The notes beneath the pieces were generated by a model. That model saw only the letters and a program-made list of their open reading frames with translations, had not been told where the DNA came from and did no database searches. The position numbers and the translations under genes were made by a program. Shown piece after piece: positions 1,897 through 11,472 of a DNA stretch of 35,535 nucleotides. The stretch's first letter is position 1. Each line of letters opens with the position of its first letter. The stretch comes from a virus (lineage: Duplodnaviria > Heunggongvirae > Uroviricota > Caudoviricetes): the IMG/VR virus record IMGVR_UViG_2718218136_000003; one strand, 5' to 3'.

Positions 1897-2910
1897 TTAC
1901 TCTACTGTGGACACTGTGTGGACACTCTCGGCTTCAGTACCACCTCTTAGCGGATTAAGAGAAATGGCGTCCTGAAGGTACTCTGGCGCAAAATGAGCGT
2001 AAACCATAGTTTGCTCAATCCGCGTGTGACCTAGTATCCGTTGTAGCGTGATAATACTTCCTCCATTAATCATGAAATGAGTGGCAAAGCTGTGCCTTAG
2101 TGCATGTGTGGCTTGCCCCGTTGGCAAATCCGGTTTTATTGCTTTCATTGTTCGTCTGAAGCGAGGGTAATCAGCATCAGGGAATAAAAAACCTCGTTTG
2201 TTATCCGCGATCATTTTGGCAACAGCCTCTGAGATCGGGACGGTGCGTGGTTTGTTTGTTTTCGTTTTAACAAACGTGACGCGGTTATGGATGATATTTT
2301 CTGCTTTCAAACGAGCTGCTTCTCCCCAACGTGCTCCTGTACTCAGGCAAAGAATCGCAATCTTTTTATTGTCGCCGTCAAGTGCTGCAAGCAGTAAGGC
2401 AATTTCTTCCTGTGTGAGATAGCCTGTTTCTGGTTTTTCCTCCTTAAGCCTCTTTGTCCCTCTGATAGGGTGCTCACCAAAGAATAACTCCGCTTCAATC
2501 AGGGCTGTAAACATGCCGCTAATACATGTTAAATCACGATTGATACTCGAAGGTTTAATACCCTGACTTCTTCGGGTGGCGCAGTACTGGCTGATAAGGG
2601 ATTTCGTGATTTGAAATGCGCATGGGTCATTCGTTATTTTTGTGAAGATTTCAATTTTTCCAAGATTAGATTTCCCATGCTCTTCGTGTTTACCCTTTAA
2701 ATCCCACCAGATCTGTGTCAGTTCCGACAGACGTCGTTTGTCTGTTGGTTTTGATAGCCATTCTTTATTGTGGTGGTTGTACAACGTGTATTTTTCGAAA
2801 GCGACAGCTTCGCTTTTCTTATCAAACTTCCTACGGATGCGTTTTCCGTTACGTCCAGTAGGGCGGATGTCCACTTCATATCGACCATCATCGAGTTTTT
2901 TGATTGCCAT
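1897..2910 (-). CDS. int: P2-type tyrosine integrase, 337 aa
   Basis: Translation has the tyrosine recombinase C-terminal catalytic region (…ATHALRHSFATHFMINGGSIITLQRILGHTRIEQTMVYAHF…); same length as P2 Int; located next to attL and downstream of the C repressor on the same strand. Confidence 0.92.
   Translation of the reverse strand: MAIKKLDDGRYEVDIRPTGRNGKRIRRKFDKKSEAVAFEKYTLYNHHNKEWLSKPTDKRRLSELTQIWWDLKGKHEEHGKSNLGKIEIFTKITNDPCAFQITKSLISQYCATRRSQGIKPSSINRDLTCISGMFTALIEAELFFGEHPIRGTKRLKEEKPETGYLTQEEIALLLAALDGDNKKIAILCLSTGARWGEAARLKAENIIHNRVTFVKTKTNKPRTVPISEAVAKMIADNKRGFLFPDADYPRFRRTMKAIKPDLPTGQATHALRHSFATHFMINGGSIITLQRILGHTRIEQTMVYAHFAPEYLQDAISLNPLRGGTEAESVHTVSTVE
1906..1925. promoter_or_regulatory. 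Two direct TGTGGACAC repeats spaced 11 bp apart in the int-proximal (P') arm; candidate Int arm-type binding sites
   Basis: Direct repeat at 1906-1914 and 1917-1925, overlapping the 3' end of int; related copies TGTGGTCA / TGTGGACG with the same 11-bp spacing occur in the ogr-proximal arm at 33944-33962. Confidence 0.5.
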
Positions 2911-3025
2911 CAGAAAACCCTCCGAGTGGTACTTTTTTTTGCTACTACTAATCGCTTTTTTCGTGGTGGCTGAAATTTAGCCACCAATAGTAGGCACTTG
3001 TGATGAATATATTCACGATAAATTG

Positions 3026-5214: not shown

Positions 5215-5486
5215 GCATTCGTATAGAAATTGGCGAACGTTATGTCGTTACCAGTGACAGCTTTCAGTTTATTCTCCATGAGAAAAAGAGAGCGGAAAGC
5301 GGTAAAAACGCCGGTCAGGAGTGGCTGGCGGTGGTTGGTTATTACCCGAAATTAAGCCAGCTCGTTTCCGGCCTGATGCATCACGATATTCTGACCGGAA
5401 GCGCAAAGTCTTTTGCTGATTTAAACGCGCAGGTTGAGCAACTCAGCAAGCGTTGTTCAGAGGCTTTTGGCTCATATGGCCATTAA
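5211..5486 (+). CDS. Early protein (P2 orf83 position), 91 aa
   Basis: 91-aa ORF; its stop overlaps the start of A. Confidence 0.6.
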   Translation: MSIRIEIGERYVVTSDSFQFILHEKKRAESGKNAGQEWLAVVGYYPKLSQLVSGLMHHDILTGSAKSFADLNAQVEQLSKRCSEAFGSYGH

Positions 5487-7761
5487 AGCCTCCGGGCGTT
5501 TTGTCCCTCCGTCAGCATTTGCTGCAGGCACCGGTAAGACGTTTACCGGTGCTTATGCATGGAGCGCGCCACGCGAGGCTGTCGGGCGCGAAAGACCCCT
5601 TACACGTGACGAGATGCGTCAGGTGCAAGGTGTTTTATCCACGATTAACCGCCTGCCTTACTTTTTGCGTTCGCTGTTTACTTCACGCTATGACTACATC
5701 CGGCGCAATAAAAGCCCGGTGCACGGGTTTTATTTCCTCACATCCACTTTTCAGCGCCGTTTATGGCCGCGCATTGAGCGTGTGAATCAGCGCCATGAAA
5801 TGAACACCGACGCGTCGTTACTGTTTCTGGCAGAGCGTGACCACTATGCGCGCCTGCCGGGAATGAATGACAAGGAGCTGAAAAAGTTTGCTGCCCGTAT
5901 CTCATCGCAGCTTTTCATGATGTATGAGGAACTCAGCGATGCCTGGGTGGATGCGCATGGCGAAAAAGAATCGCTGTTTACGGATGAGGCGCAGGCTCAC
6001 CTCTATGGTCATGTTGCTGGCGCTGCACGTGCTTTCAATATATCCCCTCTCTACTGGAAAAAATACCGTAAAGGGCAGATGACCACGAGGCAGGCATATT
6101 CTGCCATTGCCCGTCTGTTTAACGATGAGTGGTGGACTCATCAGCTTAAAGGCCAGCGTATGCGCTGGCATGAGGCGTTACTGATTGCTGTCGGGGAGGT
6201 CAATAAAGACCGTTCTCCTTATGCCAGTAAACATGCCATTCGTGATGTGCGTGCACGCCGCCAGGCAAATCTGGAATTTCTTAAATCGTGTGATCTCGAA
6301 AACAGGGAAACCGGCGAGCGCATCGACCTTATCAGTAAGGTGATGGGCAGTATTTCTAATCCTGAAATTCGCCGGATGGAGCTGATGAACACCATTGCCG
6401 GTATTGAGCGTTACGCCGCAGCAGAGGGTGATGTGGGGATGTTTATCACGCTGACCGCGCCGTCAAAGTATCACCCGACACGTCAGGTCAGAAAAGGCGA
6501 AAGTAAAACCGTCCAGCTAAATCACGGCTGGAACGATGAGGCATTTAATCCAAAGGATGCGCAGCGTTATCTCTGCCGTATCTGGAGCCTGATGCGCACG
6601 GCATTCAAGGATAATGATTTACAGGTCTACGGTTTGCGTGTCGTCGAGCCACACCACGACGGAACGCCGCACTGGCATATGATGCTTTTTTGTAATCCGC
6701 GCCAGCGTAACCAGATTATCGAAATCATGCGTCGCTATGCGCTCAAAGAGGATGGCGACGAAAGAGGAGCCGCGCGAAACCGTTTTCAGGCAAAACACCT
6801 TAATCGGGGCGGTGCTGCGGGGTATATCGCGAAATACATCTCAAAAAACATCGACGGCTATGCACTGGATGGTCAGCTCGATAACGATACCGGCAGACCT
6901 CTGAAAGATACTGCCGCGGCTGTTACTGCATGGGCGTCAACGTGGCGCATCCCGCAATTTAAAACGGTTGGTCTGCCGACAATGGGGGCTTACCGTGAAC
7001 TACGCAAATTGCCGCGCGGTGTCAGCATTGCTGATGAGTTTGACGAGCGCGTCGAGGCTGCACGCGCCGCCGCAGACAGTGGTGATTTTGCGTTGTATAT
7101 CAGCGCGCAGGGTGGGGCAAATGTCCCGCGCGATTGTCAGACTGTCAGGGTCGCCCGTAGCCCGTCGGATGACGTTAACGAGTACGAGGAAGAGGTCGAG
7201 AGAGTGGTCGGCATTTACGCGCCGCATCTCGGCGCGCGTCATATTCATATCACCAGAACGACGGACTGGCGCATTGTGCCGAAAGCTCCGGTCGTTGAGC
7301 CTTTGACTTTAAAAAGCGGCATCGCCGCGCCTCGGAGTCCTGTCAATAACTGTGGAAAGCTCACCGGTGGTGATACTTCGTTACCGGCTCCCACACCTTC
7401 TGAGCACGCCGCAGCAGTGCTAAATCTGGTTGATGACGGTGTTATCGAATGGAATGACCCGGAGGTTGTGAGGACGCTCAGGGGTGCATTAAAACACGGC
7501 CTGAAAACACCAAATCGTCAGCAAAGAAACGGAAGCCCGTTAAAACCACATGAAATAACACCGTCGGCCAGACTGACCCGGTCGGAACGATTGCAAATTA
7601 CCCGTATCCGCGTTGACCTCGCTCAGAACGGTATCAGGCCGCAACGATGGGAGCTTGAGGCGCTGGCGCGTGGCGCGACAGTAAATTATGACGGGAAAAA
7701 ATTCACGTATCCGGTCGCTGATGAGTGGTCGGGATTCTCAACAGTAATGGAGTGGACATGA
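5476..7761 (+). CDS. A: Replication initiation protein A (rolling-circle nicking protein), 761 aa
   Basis: ORF 5434-7761 trimmed to ATG at 5476, giving 761 aa as in P2 A; contains the HUH-type motif region (…PHHDGTPHWHMMLF…) and the YxxK-like region (AGYIAKYISK). Confidence 0.9.
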   Translation: MAIKASGRFVPPSAFAAGTGKTFTGAYAWSAPREAVGRERPLTRDEMRQVQGVLSTINRLPYFLRSLFTSRYDYIRRNKSPVHGFYFLTSTFQRRLWPRIERVNQRHEMNTDASLLFLAERDHYARLPGMNDKELKKFAARISSQLFMMYEELSDAWVDAHGEKESLFTDEAQAHLYGHVAGAARAFNISPLYWKKYRKGQMTTRQAYSAIARLFNDEWWTHQLKGQRMRWHEALLIAVGEVNKDRSPYASKHAIRDVRARRQANLEFLKSCDLENRETGERIDLISKVMGSISNPEIRRMELMNTIAGIERYAAAEGDVGMFITLTAPSKYHPTRQVRKGESKTVQLNHGWNDEAFNPKDAQRYLCRIWSLMRTAFKDNDLQVYGLRVVEPHHDGTPHWHMMLFCNPRQRNQIIEIMRRYALKEDGDERGAARNRFQAKHLNRGGAAGYIAKYISKNIDGYALDGQLDNDTGRPLKDTAAAVTAWASTWRIPQFKTVGLPTMGAYRELRKLPRGVSIADEFDERVEAARAAADSGDFALYISAQGGANVPRDCQTVRVARSPSDDVNEYEEEVERVVGIYAPHLGARHIHITRTTDWRIVPKAPVVEPLTLKSGIAAPRSPVNNCGKLTGGDTSLPAPTPSEHAAAVLNLVDDGVIEWNDPEVVRTLRGALKHGLKTPNRQQRNGSPLKPHEITPSARLTRSERLQITRIRVDLAQNGIRPQRWELEALARGATVNYDGKKFTYPVADEWSGFSTVMEWT

Positions 7762-8213
7762 TGGCAAAAATTCACGAGGTAAAGCTGCACGCAAAATATT
7801 TCGACCTTGTGCTGGAAGGAAAGAAACGCGCAGAGTTTCGGAAAAATGACCGTAATTATGAGCGCGGGGACACGTTGATTTTGCATGAATGGGGGCAGGG
7901 TGTGTATACGGGGCGAAAGGTTGAAGCCCGGATAACAGATGTTACTGACCTGTCAGACTGGCTGGAAGATTATGTCTTGCTAAGTATTGAGCTGCTTAAT
8001 ACAGGCGCATATGAGATTGTGAACTGGAAAGAACTTAGTGAGCGTGGTCTGTTATTCAGAATTAATCATGAAATTATGCATAAGCTCGGCCTTGCTGTTA
8101 TGTATGAACCAGAGACGGGAATGTCTGGCGGGGCAATGGTTGCCACGGATGGAGCATGGAACTATTCAGATGAACAGATGGAGCGTGCACAGCAAAACGG
8201 GTGGCTTGGATAA
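7758..8213 (+). CDS. ASCH/PUA-like (DUF3850-type) protein (P2 orf91 position), about 151 aa
   Basis: ATG at 7758 overlapping the A stop; N-terminal region (KIHEVKLHAKYFDLVLEGKKRAEFRKNDRNYERGDTLILHEW) resembles ASCH-domain proteins as I recall them. Confidence 0.65.
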   Translation: MMAKIHEVKLHAKYFDLVLEGKKRAEFRKNDRNYERGDTLILHEWGQGVYTGRKVEARITDVTDLSDWLEDYVLLSIELLNTGAYEIVNWKELSERGLLFRINHEIMHKLGLAVMYEPETGMSGGAMVATDGAWNYSDEQMERAQQNGWLG

Positions 8214-8419
8214 TGCACAGAATACCAGGCGAGATACCGCACCATAAAACTAAAAATATCAAGCTGATGGCTATTGTTCAGCGTTTACAGCGGATTATGG
8301 TCAACGAAAATCTGACGCCCGATGAGCTAGTCGGGTGTGCCGAAATAGTCCGGGATAATTACGGGCGGTTTAACTATATCGGTCAGTCCAGAGTTGCGCC
8401 ACCACCACGCAGACGATAG
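8213..8419 (+). CDS. Hypothetical small protein, 68 aa, translationally coupled to orf91 (TAATG overlap)
   Basis: ORF 8201-8419 trimmed to ATG at 8213; no recognisable domain; may be an ORF-finder artefact. Confidence 0.35.
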   Translation: MHRIPGEIPHHKTKNIKLMAIVQRLQRIMVNENLTPDELVGCAEIVRDNYGRFNYIGQSRVAPPPRRR

Positions 8420-8421
8420 AT

Positions 8422-8464
8422 AACGCCGCCAGTCGTGAAACTTGTTTTCAGGGCTGGCGGCGTT
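8422..8464 (+). other. Perfect 11-bp inverted repeat (AACGCCGCCAG / CTGGCGGCGTT) with 21-nt loop directly after the 8419 stop; candidate RNA stem-loop or terminator without U-tract
   Basis: Inverted repeat read from sequence. Confidence 0.4.
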
Positions 8465-8490
8465 GAACAACGAGTGAAGCGAGGCGTTAG
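8431..8490 (+). repeat. Copy A of a ~60-bp imperfect direct repeat (about 75% identical to copy B) upstream of cargo gene 1
   Basis: Manual alignment to 9401-9460 gives 45 of 60 matching positions, with long conserved blocks (TGAAACTTG, TGGCGG, GTTGA, GTTAG). Confidence 0.6.
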
Positions 8491-8648
8491 TTGACATTCA
8501 TATTTTTACTGCGTTGGTGCTGTTTTTTGACGGTTGAAAGGAGTTATCTCGGAGAGCTAAAGCTAACAACTTACAAATATTCAAAAGTAAGCTTCCTGTT
8601 GCTAACATAAGGTCGATTTTTTATGTGGATGATGCAAAAAGGATAGCT

Positions 8649-9380
8649 ATGGATACTATAATCGCTTTTCTATCACTCGCTTTTTTTGTTGCTTTTTTCA
8701 TCGGGTTAATCAAGCCATCACTGGTGCGAATGCCAAGCCGCAAACGTGCAAGTGCGGTTTATCTCGGAGGAGGTTTTGTATTGAGCATAATTGGTTCAAT
8801 ACTCTATCCAACAGAAAAAAGCCAGCCAGTTGCTAAAACTGAAACATCAACCGTTGTAGAACACCAAGTCCAAAAAACATTCGAATATGGTGAAAAAACA
8901 CTCAAGGAATATCGGAGCGAGCCAAAGAAAACTCGACACGATATTGTGAATAGTTACATTGACTTTAAGAAAGTTCCAGTCACCGCATCAGATGCATTTT
9001 ATGCCTGCATGAGTGAGTATACATTTACCAAAGATGATGAGTTGAAACTCGGTGATGTTCTTGGGTGGTGCTTTAATGATTATGAAAATGACCCGAGTTC
9101 ACTAAATAATAAAATCAATCTTGATACATTTCAGAGTAATTTTAGTGGTTGGGATGGTTCTTATCGTCCATTGGAAAAACTAATTAAAGATAATATGAAC
9201 GATGATTCATCTTATAAACATGTATCAACGGTATATCATTTAGTTTTGAATAAAGACCCGCACGCCATTGTGAAAACGACGTTTCGCGGCACTAATGCTT
9301 ATGGTGGCATGGTCAAACAGACTGTAGCAGCGCGAGTTGACGTGCGAACGGGTGAGATCGATTCAATACTCGACAATTAA
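8649..9380 (+). CDS. Uncharacterised membrane-anchored protein, 243 aa: two predicted N-terminal TM helices plus ~170-aa soluble domain; cargo in the tin/old slot
   Basis: ORF 8625-9380 trimmed to ATG at 8649 with AAGGA Shine-Dalgarno 6 nt upstream; hydrophobic stretches IIAFLSLAFFVAFFIGLI and AVYLGGGFVLSIIGSILY; AT-rich codon usage unlike the phage backbone. Confidence 0.6.
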   Translation: MDTIIAFLSLAFFVAFFIGLIKPSLVRMPSRKRASAVYLGGGFVLSIIGSILYPTEKSQPVAKTETSTVVEHQVQKTFEYGEKTLKEYRSEPKKTRHDIVNSYIDFKKVPVTASDAFYACMSEYTFTKDDELKLGDVLGWCFNDYENDPSSLNNKINLDTFQSNFSGWDGSYRPLEKLIKDNMNDDSSYKHVSTVYHLVLNKDPHAIVKTTFRGTNAYGGMVKQTVAARVDVRTGEIDSILDN

Positions 9381-9400
9381 ATAATATAGTGACAGCTCCG

Positions 9401-9460
9401 TCAGTGATGAAACTTGCTTTTAGTCTTGGCGGGGTTGAGCAATGAGTCTTGCAAGGTGTT
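9401..9460 (+). repeat. Copy B of the ~60-bp imperfect direct repeat, running into the ribosome-binding site and start codon of cargo gene 2
   Basis: Manual alignment to 8431-8490; copy B ends GTTAGC immediately before ATG 9464. Confidence 0.6.
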
Positions 9461-9463
9461 AGC

Positions 9464-10120
9464 ATGCGTAGAATGGAAGCTGCTTGGACGTGGGGTATTC
9501 ATATGAATTTAAAAATTTTCGGCATAATTGTCCTTTCTGCTTTGATGTTCGTTTTAGGTTTTTTTCTCGGTGGTTTTAATTGGGAATGGGCTGATAAGAA
9601 TTATGCAGGTGAGGTGGCGTTGTGGAGTATGTTAGGAGGGTGGTTATCCGCAATTGCAACTCTGTTTGCCGTGTTGGTTTCATTATATATGGCGTATCAA
9701 GCTACTCAGAATGAGATTGAAAAAATCAGGGTTACTCATGGAGTAAGTATGAGTGTCACTCATGACAATGAGTTAAGTTGTAATCTCATTATTCAGAACT
9801 TGAGAAATATGAAAGTGAATATTACTGGTGTTTTTTTGTCTCTAGGTAAATCATCAGGTAAGTACTCTTTGGATAAAGTAATTGACAATCGTAATATAAC
9901 GCTTTCATATAAAGGTGAAACAGAAAAGGTACAATTTGTAATCCATTCTGGGTATATTTGGTGGTCAATGTATAAATTATTCGATATGGATAAGAACATA
10001 GGTTTTGAAAAGGGTAAGATCTTGATAACAACCAACCTCAATACATATGAATTTGATTTGCCAAAAGAATATTTAAGAGCTTTTGAGAAAGCTTATTCGG
10101 AGTATCAGACAAAAAAATAA
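9464..10120 (+). CDS. Uncharacterised membrane-anchored protein, 218 aa: two predicted N-terminal TM helices plus ~150-aa soluble domain; cargo in the tin/old slot
   Basis: ORF 9449-10120 trimmed to ATG at 9464 with AAGGTG 5 nt upstream; hydrophobic stretches IFGIIVLSALMFVLGFFLGGF and WSMLGGWLSAIATLFAVLVSLYMAY; AT-rich. Confidence 0.6.
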   Translation: MRRMEAAWTWGIHMNLKIFGIIVLSALMFVLGFFLGGFNWEWADKNYAGEVALWSMLGGWLSAIATLFAVLVSLYMAYQATQNEIEKIRVTHGVSMSVTHDNELSCNLIIQNLRNMKVNITGVFLSLGKSSGKYSLDKVIDNRNITLSYKGETEKVQFVIHSGYIWWSMYKLFDMDKNIGFEKGKILITTNLNTYEFDLPKEYLRAFEKAYSEYQTKK

Positions 10121-10249
10121 TGAGCTGCATGCAAAAGGTGCATGTTTTTGCATGTGCTAAGTTCACTGGTTTTGTGTATATCGCTTCAGATCTAGCGTGG
10201 TTCCGGGGAGGGCATGCAACTGCATTAAAACCGCTCCATGAAGCGGGCG

Positions 10250-10268
10250 GGCGAGGCGGGGAAAGCAC
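10250..10268. other. cos site: 19-nt cohesive-end sequence GGCGAGGCGGGGAAAGCAC
   Basis: Exact string found about 170 bp beyond the Q stop codon, at the position of cos in P2; matches the P2 cohesive-end sequence as I recall it. Confidence 0.7.
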
Positions 10269-10437
10269 TGCGCGCTGGCGGTGGTGCTGATTTTATTTTT
10301 TCAGCGTCTGAGCGCGTCGTGATGGCGTTTAGATTGTTCGCCGGGGCGTTGGTGTGTCTGCGGGATGTTTTGTACGGTGGTGAGCGTGTGAGGGCGTGAT
10401 GACAGGGTGTAAAAAAGCCGCCCGCAGGCGGCGATGT

Positions 10438-11472
10438 TCAGCCGTTGTCAGTGTCCAGTGAGTAGTTTTTAAAGCGGATGACCTCCTGACCGAGCCAGCC
10501 GTTTATCTCGCGGATCCTGTCCTGTAACGGGATAAGCTCATTGCGGACAAAGACCTTTGCCACTTTCTCAATATCACCCAGCGACCCGACGTTCTCCGGC
10601 TTGCCGCCCATCAACTGAAAGGGGATGCGGTGCGCGTCCAGCAGGTCAGCGGCGCTGGCTTTTTTGATATTAAAAAAATCGTCCTTCGTCGCCACTTCAC
10701 TGAGGGGGATAATTTTAATGCCGTCGGCTTTCCCCTGCGGGGCATAGAGAAACAGATTTTTAAAGTTATTGCGGCCTTTCGACTTAACCATGTTTTCGCG
10801 AAGCATTTCGATATCGTTGCGATCCTGCACGGCATCGGTGACGTACATGATGTATCCGGCATGTGCGCCGTTTTCGTAATACTTGCGGCGGAACAGCGTG
10901 GCCGACTCATTCAGCCAGGCAGAGTTAAGGGCGCTGAGATATTCCGGCAGGCCGTACAGCTCCTGATTAATATCGGGCTCCAGCAGGTGAAACACGGAGC
11001 CGGGCGCGAAGGCTGTCGGCTCGTTGAAGGACGGCACCCACCAGTAAACATCCTCTTCCACGCCACGACGGGTATATTTTGCCGGTGAGGTTTCCAGTCT
11101 GATGACCTTACCGGTGGTGCTGTAGCGCTTTTCCAGAAACGCATTACCGAACACCAGAAAATCCAGCACAAAGCGGCTGAAATCCTGCTGGGAAAGCCAC
11201 GGGTGCGGGATAAACGTTGAAGCCAGAATATTACGTTTGACGTAAATCGGTGAGCTGTGATGCACGGCAGCACGCAGACTTTTTGCCAGACCGGTAAAGC
11301 TGACCGGCGGCTCATACCATCTGCCGTTACTGATGCATTCGACGTAATCCAGAATGTCACGGCGGTCGAGTACCGGCACCGGCTCGCCAAAGGTGAATGC
11401 CTCCATTTTCGGGGCGATGGCGGTCATGGTTTTTGCCGCAGGTTGCGGTGTTTTCCCTTTTTTCTTGCTCAT
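10438..11472 (-). CDS. Q: Portal protein Q, 344 aa
   Basis: 344-aa ORF on the minus strand in the P2 Q position, same length as P2 Q. Confidence 0.9.
   Translation of the reverse strand: MSKKKGKTPQPAAKTMTAIAPKMEAFTFGEPVPVLDRRDILDYVECISNGRWYEPPVSFTGLAKSLRAAVHHSSPIYVKRNILASTFIPHPWLSQQDFSRFVLDFLVFGNAFLEKRYSTTGKVIRLETSPAKYTRRGVEEDVYWWVPSFNEPTAFAPGSVFHLLEPDINQELYGLPEYLSALNSAWLNESATLFRRKYYENGAHAGYIMYVTDAVQDRNDIEMLRENMVKSKGRNNFKNLFLYAPQGKADGIKIIPLSEVATKDDFFNIKKASAADLLDAHRIPFQLMGGKPENVGSLGDIEKVAKVFVRNELIPLQDRIREINGWLGQEVIRFKNYSLDTDNG

Follow-up and report, generated by a model that had tools for sequence, protein, structure and literature searches.

A structured two-hairpin element at module junctions in the gpA-cos interval of P2/186-like phages

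Introduction

Mosaic temperate phages carry conserved "boundary" or "linker" sequences at the junctions between modules (Susskind-Botstein modular theory; lambdoid phages), and the polycistronic mRNAs of phages contain intercistronic processing or stabilising hairpins, e.g., the RNase III sites of the T7 early region and lambda sib. The put RNAs of phage HK022 are cis-acting antiterminators of ~70 nt with two stem-loops and one unpaired base between them. Here, we describe an element, named E, that is like each of these in some respects. E occurs twice in IMG/VR record IMGVR_UViG_2718218136_000003, a P2-like (Peduovirus) prophage adjoining a host yegS-like gene (35,535 nt; "the window" means this whole stretch, and positions are those of the window unless a locus number such as L001 is given). 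Both copies, A and B, belong to one family: E is a ~70-nt, two-hairpin, non-coding element of P2/186-like phages. Its hairpins are called HP1 and HP2 below.

How does E compare with the described systems? E shares with the boundary sequences of mosaic phages that it is short, conserved and non-coding and joins non-homologous modules, with many different neighbours; unlike them, it has a covarying, strand-specific two-hairpin structure and a core that is invariant across Enterobacterales. The covariation and the invariant core point to a functional constraint of E's own, not merely to residual homology. As with intercistronic hairpins, a long, near-perfect hairpin with an internal loop or mismatch follows stop codons at several junctions per operon. 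E differs from these hairpins in adding a sequence-invariant second hairpin with the Shine-Dalgarno sequence of the next gene, in that the downstream gene is not present in every phage, and in being known here from sequence. The likeness to the put RNAs is one of overall geometry (two hairpins in ~70 nt, with one unpaired linker base) and, as proposed below, of action in cis on the transcript strand, whereas E lies at the distal ends of operons and not just downstream of promoters. Indeed, the annotated terminator t95b of phage 186 ends the transcript right after E, which argues against antitermination.

E appears to be a structured junction element that has so far gone undescribed. It is not described in Rfam or in the GenBank annotations of 186, Wphi, P2-EC58 and P2-EC67, and no description was found in the literature searched, although older P2 papers may mention it; matches to E sequence strings in literature text were to unrelated primers only. 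An initial annotation, made from the sequence of the window, had likewise named no described equivalent. With Rfam 15 (cmscan, positions 7500-11000, E-value <= 10), nothing was found over either copy, just an unrelated weak group II intron match at 8733-8807.

Both copies lie in the tin/old slot, between gpA and cos. The gpA-cos slot is a hotspot of anti-phage defence genes, in which 1,650 gene arrangements have been counted; the mechanism of exchange was left open, with speculation about the cos ends (Rousset et al. 2022, PMC9122126). As shown below, E marks one border of this slot, and it does so next to many different cargo genes.

Two copies of one element

A repeat search of the window gives one outstanding direct repeat, 8419-8490 versus 9391-9462 (72 nt, 74% identity, spacing 972). 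The copies match at 53 of 72 positions, compared with 31.3 +/- 1.4 in 300 shuffles of the neighbouring 2 kb, none of which exceeded 36. The initial annotation had reported a ~60-bp repeat with 45 of 60 matching positions; the repeat is real and far beyond chance, with the offset corrected from 970 to 972 and the length to ~70-72 nt. An unfiltered covariance model of the family, run over the 35.5-kb window, finds exactly two copies, A at 90.3 bits and B at 63.8 bits, the rest being noise, and nhmmer gives copy A an E-value of 1e-19. Each copy is nearer to elements of other phages than to the other copy.

Copy A is canonical and scores best, whereas copy B is degenerate and the most diverged element of the data set; this reverses the earlier suggestion that copy A is a relic. 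Copy A has the perfect 11-bp stem first noticed at 8422-8464, which extends to 14 + 5 bp, and its predicted RNA fold has an energy of -35.9 kcal/mol (z = -5.2). HP2 of this copy contains GAGG at 8481-8484, homology to P2-like relatives stops at 8490-8494, and the ATG of cargo gene 1 (8649) follows 159 nt on, as had been reported.

Copy B, whose counterpart in phage 186 is L001 3271-3340, had been said to lack the stem-loop. The same hairpin is kept on the plus-strand RNA, by means of G·U pairs and one double change from G-C to U-G; the minus strand alone loses it, and as DNA it is marginal (predicted energies of -21.9 kcal/mol as RNA versus -6.0 as DNA, the DNA value with z = +0.6). In HP2, four of the five substitutions (A to G and three times C to U) keep or create pairs. 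The initial annotation was right that copy B runs into the Shine-Dalgarno sequence and start codon of cargo gene 2: AAGG at 9453-9456 lies seven bases upstream of the ATG, and the end of the copy at 9462 is followed by 1 nt and then by the first in-frame ATG of this gene (9464).

Reading frames have been called beside and across E. A TTG at 8491, straight after copy A, opens a 39-codon open reading frame (ORF; 8491-8610, plus strand, MTFIFLLRWCCFL...) in the spacer, and the GAGG of HP2 is suitably spaced for it. Thus, a possible start codon does follow copy A, where none had been seen before. The ORF is probably not a gene, because related loci have frame-changing differences there. Similarly, annotation pipelines often predict ORFs that run across E (e.g., 8327-8497, minus strand), which are labelled "hypothetical protein" or, in some records, "meiotically up-regulated 80 protein". 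These calls are probably spurious, given the variable-length loop of HP2 and the covariation described next.

Structure and strand constraint

In the alignments, E reads HP1, one unpaired G, HP2 and a terminal AG. HP1 is closed by AAC...GUU. In most cases its fourth pair is a conserved G·G mismatch, and the inner helix, UGAAA/UUUCA, has a 5-nt loop. HP2 has the nearly invariant form AAC-AA-C-GA-GC-(2-4 variable nt)-GC-GA-G-GC-GUU, with GAGG in its 3' arm. It is read as a putative irregular hairpin: the loop is variable, and tandem G·A pairs occur in a CGAG/CGAG context. The stem is backed by U·G and U-A variants, and one variant, CUCGC-ACC-GCGAG, makes both G·A pairs Watson-Crick.

The two halves of the element were sampled by different searches. 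The pattern used to scan viral contigs consisted of the 3' arm of HP1 and the 5' half of HP2 and gave the invariant GCGAGGCGTTAG; the pattern used for the species-level scan was HP2 and gave a freely covarying HP1. Neither scan forced both halves. Among 75 distinct sequences of HP1, both partners have changed at nine pairs, and pairing is kept in 91.8% of cells. The observed covariation values were reached by 0 of 500 shuffles, and sliding the partners against each other cuts pairing to 28-44%. At most HP1 positions of the species-level set, three to five standard pair types occur. In total, 11 pairs show changes on both sides, the kind of compensatory change expected of a structured cis-acting RNA.

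Which strand folds? G·U or U·G cells outnumber A·C or C·A cells by 219 to 12 (89 to 16 in the species set), which shows that the folding constraint is on the plus strand; a terminator role on the minus strand was rejected on this ground. For copy B and the 186 copy, predicted minus-strand folds do not surpass those of shuffled sequences. As DNA, the plus strand folds significantly for copy A (z = -6.3) and for the 186 copy (z = -3.7). An alternative pairing, between the 5' arm of HP1 and the terminal GGCGUU, appears in the minimum-free-energy fold of the 186 element; it is unsupported by covariation because the 5' arm varies while the terminal block is constant.

Distribution

E is widespread in P2-like phages. 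A blastn search with copy A matched 78 phage records from hosts of the genera Escherichia, Salmonella, Klebsiella, Yersinia and Erwinia, and the matches nearly always end at 8490-8493. The pattern scan of viral contigs returned 120 loci, which hold 119 true elements in 90 distinct contexts. At one genome per species, E was found in 38 genomes of Enterobacteriaceae, Erwiniaceae, Yersiniaceae and Pectobacteriaceae, and 515 of 5426 complete E. coli genomes carry it, at one or two places each (median 1). Hits on plasmids are integrated P2-like prophages, e.g., in IncC plasmids; all loci whose neighbours were inspected are P2-like prophages, the plasmid-borne ones included. With one or two places per E. 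coli genome, E lacks the scattered copies of repetitive extragenic palindromic sequences and bacterial interspersed mosaic elements (REP/BIME), enterobacterial repetitive intergenic consensus sequences (ERIC) and miniature inverted-repeat transposable elements (MITEs). MITE-like mobility was rejected, E being confined to one locus and one orientation.

The initial annotation had allowed for a chance local duplication, a scenario to which a functionless remnant can be added. Copy B lends it something, being degenerate and with a fold not above shuffles. The idea is nevertheless effectively refuted by the match between the copies, which lies far above the shuffle maximum, by the closer kinship of each copy to elements of other phages, and by the presence of E in hundreds of phages of four Enterobacterales families, where its pairs covary and its core stays invariant beside proteins just 30-40% identical.

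Two further observations concern where E is found in sequence records. After orf97, loci L038 and L053 have a remnant of E, AAACGCCGCCGGTG-TTGAAAAACGACTACCGCGAGGCGTTTG, from which the loop and 3' arm of HP1 are deleted, so E can decay in place. In addition, many complete assemblies have E near position 2,600-3,000 (E. coli chromosomes, 2940-3020; IncC plasmids, 2623-2691). In one IncC plasmid that was inspected, coordinate 1 is the start of a P2-like "replication endonuclease" gene (gpA). This suggests that such records were rotated to the gpA start, presumably by automatic start-fixing that mistook a prophage gene for the start of the replicon. It also places P2-like prophages in conjugative IncC plasmids.

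Position and junctions

In loci mapped by tblastn with the proteins of the window and the Tum protein of phage 186, E always lies between gpA and Q (the gpA-cos interval) and always in the orientation of gpA, in one or two copies. The layouts are gpA-orf91-orf92-E-[cargo]; gpA-orf91-orf92-E-orf97 with no E after orf97; gpA-tum-E-[cargo]; gpA-tum-orf97-E followed by nothing or by cargo; and gpA-tum-E-orf92-E-[cargo], with the copies ~405 nt apart. The layout of the window, gpA-orf91-orf92-E-orf97-E-cargo2, recurs in L002, L088 and L120, and in L046 with other cargo.

On its left side, E is placed by stop codons. Most commonly in the species-level sample, it starts 4-11 nt after the stop of a homologue of tum, which encodes an SOS antirepressor with a DinI-like C-terminal domain, and this placement holds even where gpA is ~30% identical to that of the window. 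The stop of orf92 lies 2-5 nt, and that of orf97 9-16 nt, before E. Nearly every orf92 in E. coli genomes has E after it (matches stop at 8490-8494), and the orf92-E unit of P2-type phages is found next to many different cargos. The proposal that the repeat is a leader preceding each cargo gene does not hold, since E follows the stops of tum, orf92 and orf97 and the cargo is often on the opposite strand.

On its right side, the last copy of E is the left border of a hypervariable cargo slot, with unrelated sequence from the next nucleotide on. All four bases occur as the first base after GTTAG, and the right-hand context of copy A, TTGACAGAC..., is seen again in more than 10 loci. Forward cargo may begin with an ATG 1-3 nt after E (the cargo gene 2 family, L059 and L008). 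One 313-aa cargo gene (82-93% identical) is found together with E (80-87% identical) beside three unrelated left flanks, and in L128 a reverse-oriented cargo gene uses the TTA of GTTAG as its stop codon. Overall, E has at least five unrelated contexts on its left and at least 30 on its right, which part from one another 0-3 nt from its edges, as at a mosaic boundary. The initial annotation therefore saw correctly that the repeat is a shared module that marks boundaries of modules and cargo; in blastn and pattern scans, E bounds many different cargo genes in P2-like phages.

The cos-side border of the slot is no less sharp: homology resumes at 10125-10127 in 21 loci, at a conserved motif (GCATGCAAnAGGTGCATGnTTTTGCATGCG, 10127-10155; L001 3429-3460) that may be a packaging (terminase-binding) or terminator signal. 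Its hairpin is detected in a scan for intrinsic terminators (8100-10500), which found no site at either copy of E. E has no terminator U run: the sequence after HP1 is GUUGAACAAC, and that after HP2 is variable. Since the cos-side edge is sharp without E, sharp edges in this slot do not in themselves call for a site-specific recombinase, and a dedicated mechanism, as implied by the idea of a recombination module, is not needed.

The E of phage 186 is part of the annotated p95 (SOS) transcript; it comes after the orf97 stop and before the terminator t95b. In cargo-less loci of the 186 type (L001 3271-3391 and many others), the t95b hairpin and its U run come within ~25 nt after E. E and t95b form a conserved ~120-nt unit at the 3' end of the SOS transcript, a layout like that of small RNAs derived from 3' untranslated regions.

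Origin of the two copies

Why does the window have two copies? The segment 8381-9380, with copy A, the spacer and orf97, is ~94% identical to P2-type loci, in which a different hairpin, and not E, comes after orf97. The overlapping segment 8599-10197, with orf97, copy B, cargo gene 2 and the cos-proximal region, is collinear with, and ~80% identical to, tum-orf97-E-cargo2 loci of the 186 type. The two copies can be explained by the joining of P2-type orf92-E-leader-orf97 to 186-type orf97-E-cargo2-cos near the 3' end of orf97. If the two lineages had crossed over close to the 3' terminus of orf97, this layout would result. Such a junction of two module lineages takes the place of the earlier picture of cassettes that each bring their own leader.

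Proposed function and alternatives

We give slightly less than an even chance to the reading that E is a cis-acting RNA junction element of the rightward transcript and also a portable patch of homology. Its action would be in cis, on the rightward strand, and RNA of an early or SOS-operon transcript is its most likely form. HP1 may form a cap or insulator for the message upstream of it, by blocking 3' exonucleases and/or by serving as a processing site. HP2 may present or hide a Shine-Dalgarno sequence (GAGG) for a forward gene placed directly downstream, e.g., cargo gene 2. E could also be a crossover patch for the shuffling of left and right modules, with the cos-side motif as the other anchor; it would be a natural patch because it is the only sequence common to otherwise unrelated neighbours. 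An RNA is suggested by the placement of E relative to stop codons and, in several families, also to start codons. RNA is preferred to DNA because the G·U-rich stems are strong as RNA and weak as DNA, as in copy B.

A number of findings weigh against this reading. E is facultative, and any function is thus dispensable: canonical P2 has no E and a gap of just 38 nt from orf91 to tin; E. coli has 538 places with E, some of them in 186-type prophages, versus 2008 places with P2-type gpA, i.e., roughly a quarter; and in a sample chosen by tum, E lies <=2.5 kb downstream in ~48 of the 75 loci with enough downstream sequence. The genes around E do not always suit an RNA of the rightward transcript. 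Cargo to the right of E often reads in the opposite direction and has its stop 1-2 nt from E (ORFs of 313, 239 and 244 aa), and in L128, E stands alone between cargo on both sides, its left neighbour being the 5' end of a reverse-oriented Fic gene. Where E persists beside reverse-oriented genes, it is neither the 3' untranslated region of an adjacent gene nor a leader. The 45-nt invariance exceeds what a simple stabilising hairpin or ribosome-binding site would need, and implies a sequence-specific binding partner, although the invariance of HP2 in the species set was partly imposed by the search pattern. The initial annotation had proposed folding both copies; this bears out copy A, whereas copy B keeps its pairs but has an RNA energy no better than that of shuffles (z = -0.9). 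Finally, the putative RNA role is one that we infer, with one annotated terminator in 186 as its other footing.

Could E instead work as single-stranded DNA? The displaced plus strand would fold as a signal for lagging-strand priming or helicase loading during the rolling-circle replication driven by gpA. We consider this unlikely. In its favour, folding is strand-specific and orientation is fixed relative to gpA; the distance from the ori nick inside gpA to E, which is downstream of it, is 0.7-3 kb (the P2 ori region aligns to 7234-7434); and copy A and the 186 copy fold significantly as plus-strand DNA. In DNA, too, tandem G·A pairs are stable when the context is 5'-CGAG-3'. Single-strand initiation (ssi) signals typically consist of a hairpin and a conserved single-stranded sequence, are dispensable and occasionally have a second copy, and E resembles them in all of these respects. 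As at ssi signals and primosome assembly sites (PAS), and at the single-strand origins (sso) of rolling-circle replicons, an orientation-specific hairpin with a conserved flank lies downstream of an HUH-nickase origin and is dispensable and modular. Unlike these signals, E is positioned by stop and start codons, and a priming site gives no rationale for spacings of 2-11 nt from stops and 1-3 nt from starts. Moreover, many of its G·U positions would be much weaker as G·T, leaving copy B barely stable as DNA; the plus strand is identified as the nicked and displaced strand only by resemblance to the phiX174 origin; and canonical P2 replicates without E. A related candidate, E as a second nick site for gpA (cut between GCGCCTCGG and AGTCCTGTC), was rejected, since local alignment to the P2 ori region on both strands gave trivial matches (score 16).

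The sharp junctions invite comparison with the attC sites of integrons, whose core consensus is GTTRRRY and which are conserved mainly in structure. E would then be a folded-strand site for site-specific recombination, with cargo cassettes inserted and excised exactly after GTTAG. Like attC, E has hairpins on a folded strand at the 3' ends of gene cassettes, AAC...GTT bounds and genes that abut within a few nucleotides; many unrelated partners meet E at junctions exact to the nucleotide on either side, cargo ORFs begin or end 1-3 nt from E, the terminal GTTAG resembles the attC core, and arrays such as tum-E-orf92-E and orf92-E-orf97-E look like cassettes with their own 3' sites. Even so, we regard an attC-like site as very unlikely. 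A check of the core showed that AAC...GTT closes both hairpins, while the two bases after GTTAG are unconstrained, with no preference for RRY, and are unpaired with the bases before AAC. Unlike attC, E is conserved in sequence and offers no evidence for a crossover between the G and TT of the core; no integron integrase or attI was found among the five left-end prophage ORFs scanned, where the sole recombinase is a P2-type phage integrase (PF24624 + PF00589), beside the C repressor and cox. Cargo gene 2 and most other cargo reach the cos-side motif without a further E, at one or two copies per phage, and the cos-side edge, at a packaging-region motif, is just as sharp. In filled slots, cargo has replaced the t95b segment and was not inserted beside it. 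The broader idea of integron-like capture or exchange of cargo with nucleotide precision, by a phage or host enzyme in place of an integron integrase, is allowed by these data and not favoured; we hold it to be, if anything, a shade more doubtful still.

Two other candidates were also set aside. Base-pairing in trans between the invariant core and the rest of the prophage gave, own antisense aside, a best energy of about -33 kcal/mol (~3.6 standard deviations from the mean among ~7,000 windows), which is unconvincing. The 3' arm of HP1 in copy A contains GCTGGCGG (8453-8460, plus strand), which differs from Chi (GCTGGTGG) at one position; distant members of the family do not conserve this octamer, and no true Chi occurs in the window. 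GCTGGCGG lies such that RecBCD coming from the cos end would encounter it in the active direction.

Genes of the window

The coordinates of the elements and their neighbours are collected in Table 1. gpA is the conserved left anchor of the slot. The orf91 product belongs to DUF3850/ASCH (the PHROGs label for this fold is RNA-binding protein) with DUF7415, and its homologue sits upstream of gpA in loci of the 186 type. The small orf92 product was considered as a truncated homologue of the N-terminus of Tum, an idea that was rejected (BLASTP, E-value 0.028; profile-profile probability, 0.4-1.8%). The short similarity is to the N-terminal part of 186 Tum (L001 2010-2450), AEIVRDN... in orf92 against AEIARGN..., with APP after both. 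The spacer, with copy A and orf97, is 94% identical to the P2-type loci L107, L050 and L019. Cargo gene 1 is ~76% identical in DNA to orf97 of phage 186, which is annotated in GenBank with "expression from plasmid blocks 186 infection". The gene is found again at the same 2-nt distance after E in the 186-type loci L023, L024, L083 and L047, like cargo gene 2 here. Neither cargo gene has a PADLOC or Pfam match.

Table 1. Positions of E and of neighbouring features in the window
Feature	Position	Strand	Remarks
int	1897-2910	-	C repressor and cox also at left end
gpA, replication endonuclease, conserved left anchor	5434-7761	+	ORF list; RefSeq label "replication endonuclease" on matching sequence
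orf91, ASCH/DUF3850 protein	7725-8213		Domain matches
orf92-like small gene, 72 aa	8201-8419	+	Matches phrog_11386; TAG stop 2 nt before copy A
E copy A (canonical)	8422-8490	+	HP1 8422-8464, linker G 8465, HP2 8466-8488, terminal AG 8489-8490
P2-type spacer ("leader"), copy A to cargo gene 1	8491-8648	+
Cargo gene 1, phage 186 Orf97 homologue	8649-9380	+	phrog_3403, E-value 7e-144
E copy B (diverged)	9394-9462	+	HP1 9394-9436, linker 9437, HP2 9438-9460, terminal AG 9461-9462
Cargo gene 2, 218 aa	9464-10120	+	Matches phrog_16957
cos-side (right) edge of variable slot, GCATGCAAAAGGTGCATGTTTTTGCATGT	10127-10155	+	Three TGCAT repeats, terminator-like hairpin
Portal gene Q	10438-11472	-

Implications

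What does E mean for P2/186-like phages? Together with the cos-side motif, E provides precise landmarks at both borders of the slot, with which cargo can be delimited. E is also a concrete candidate for the translation of forward cargo, by means of a donated ribosome-binding site inside a hairpin, and for a site of recombination between modules. The association of E with tum in diverse Enterobacterales suggests a role in the induction circuit. E is a small, testable RNA or DNA element, and its invariant 45-nt core implies that it has a binding partner.

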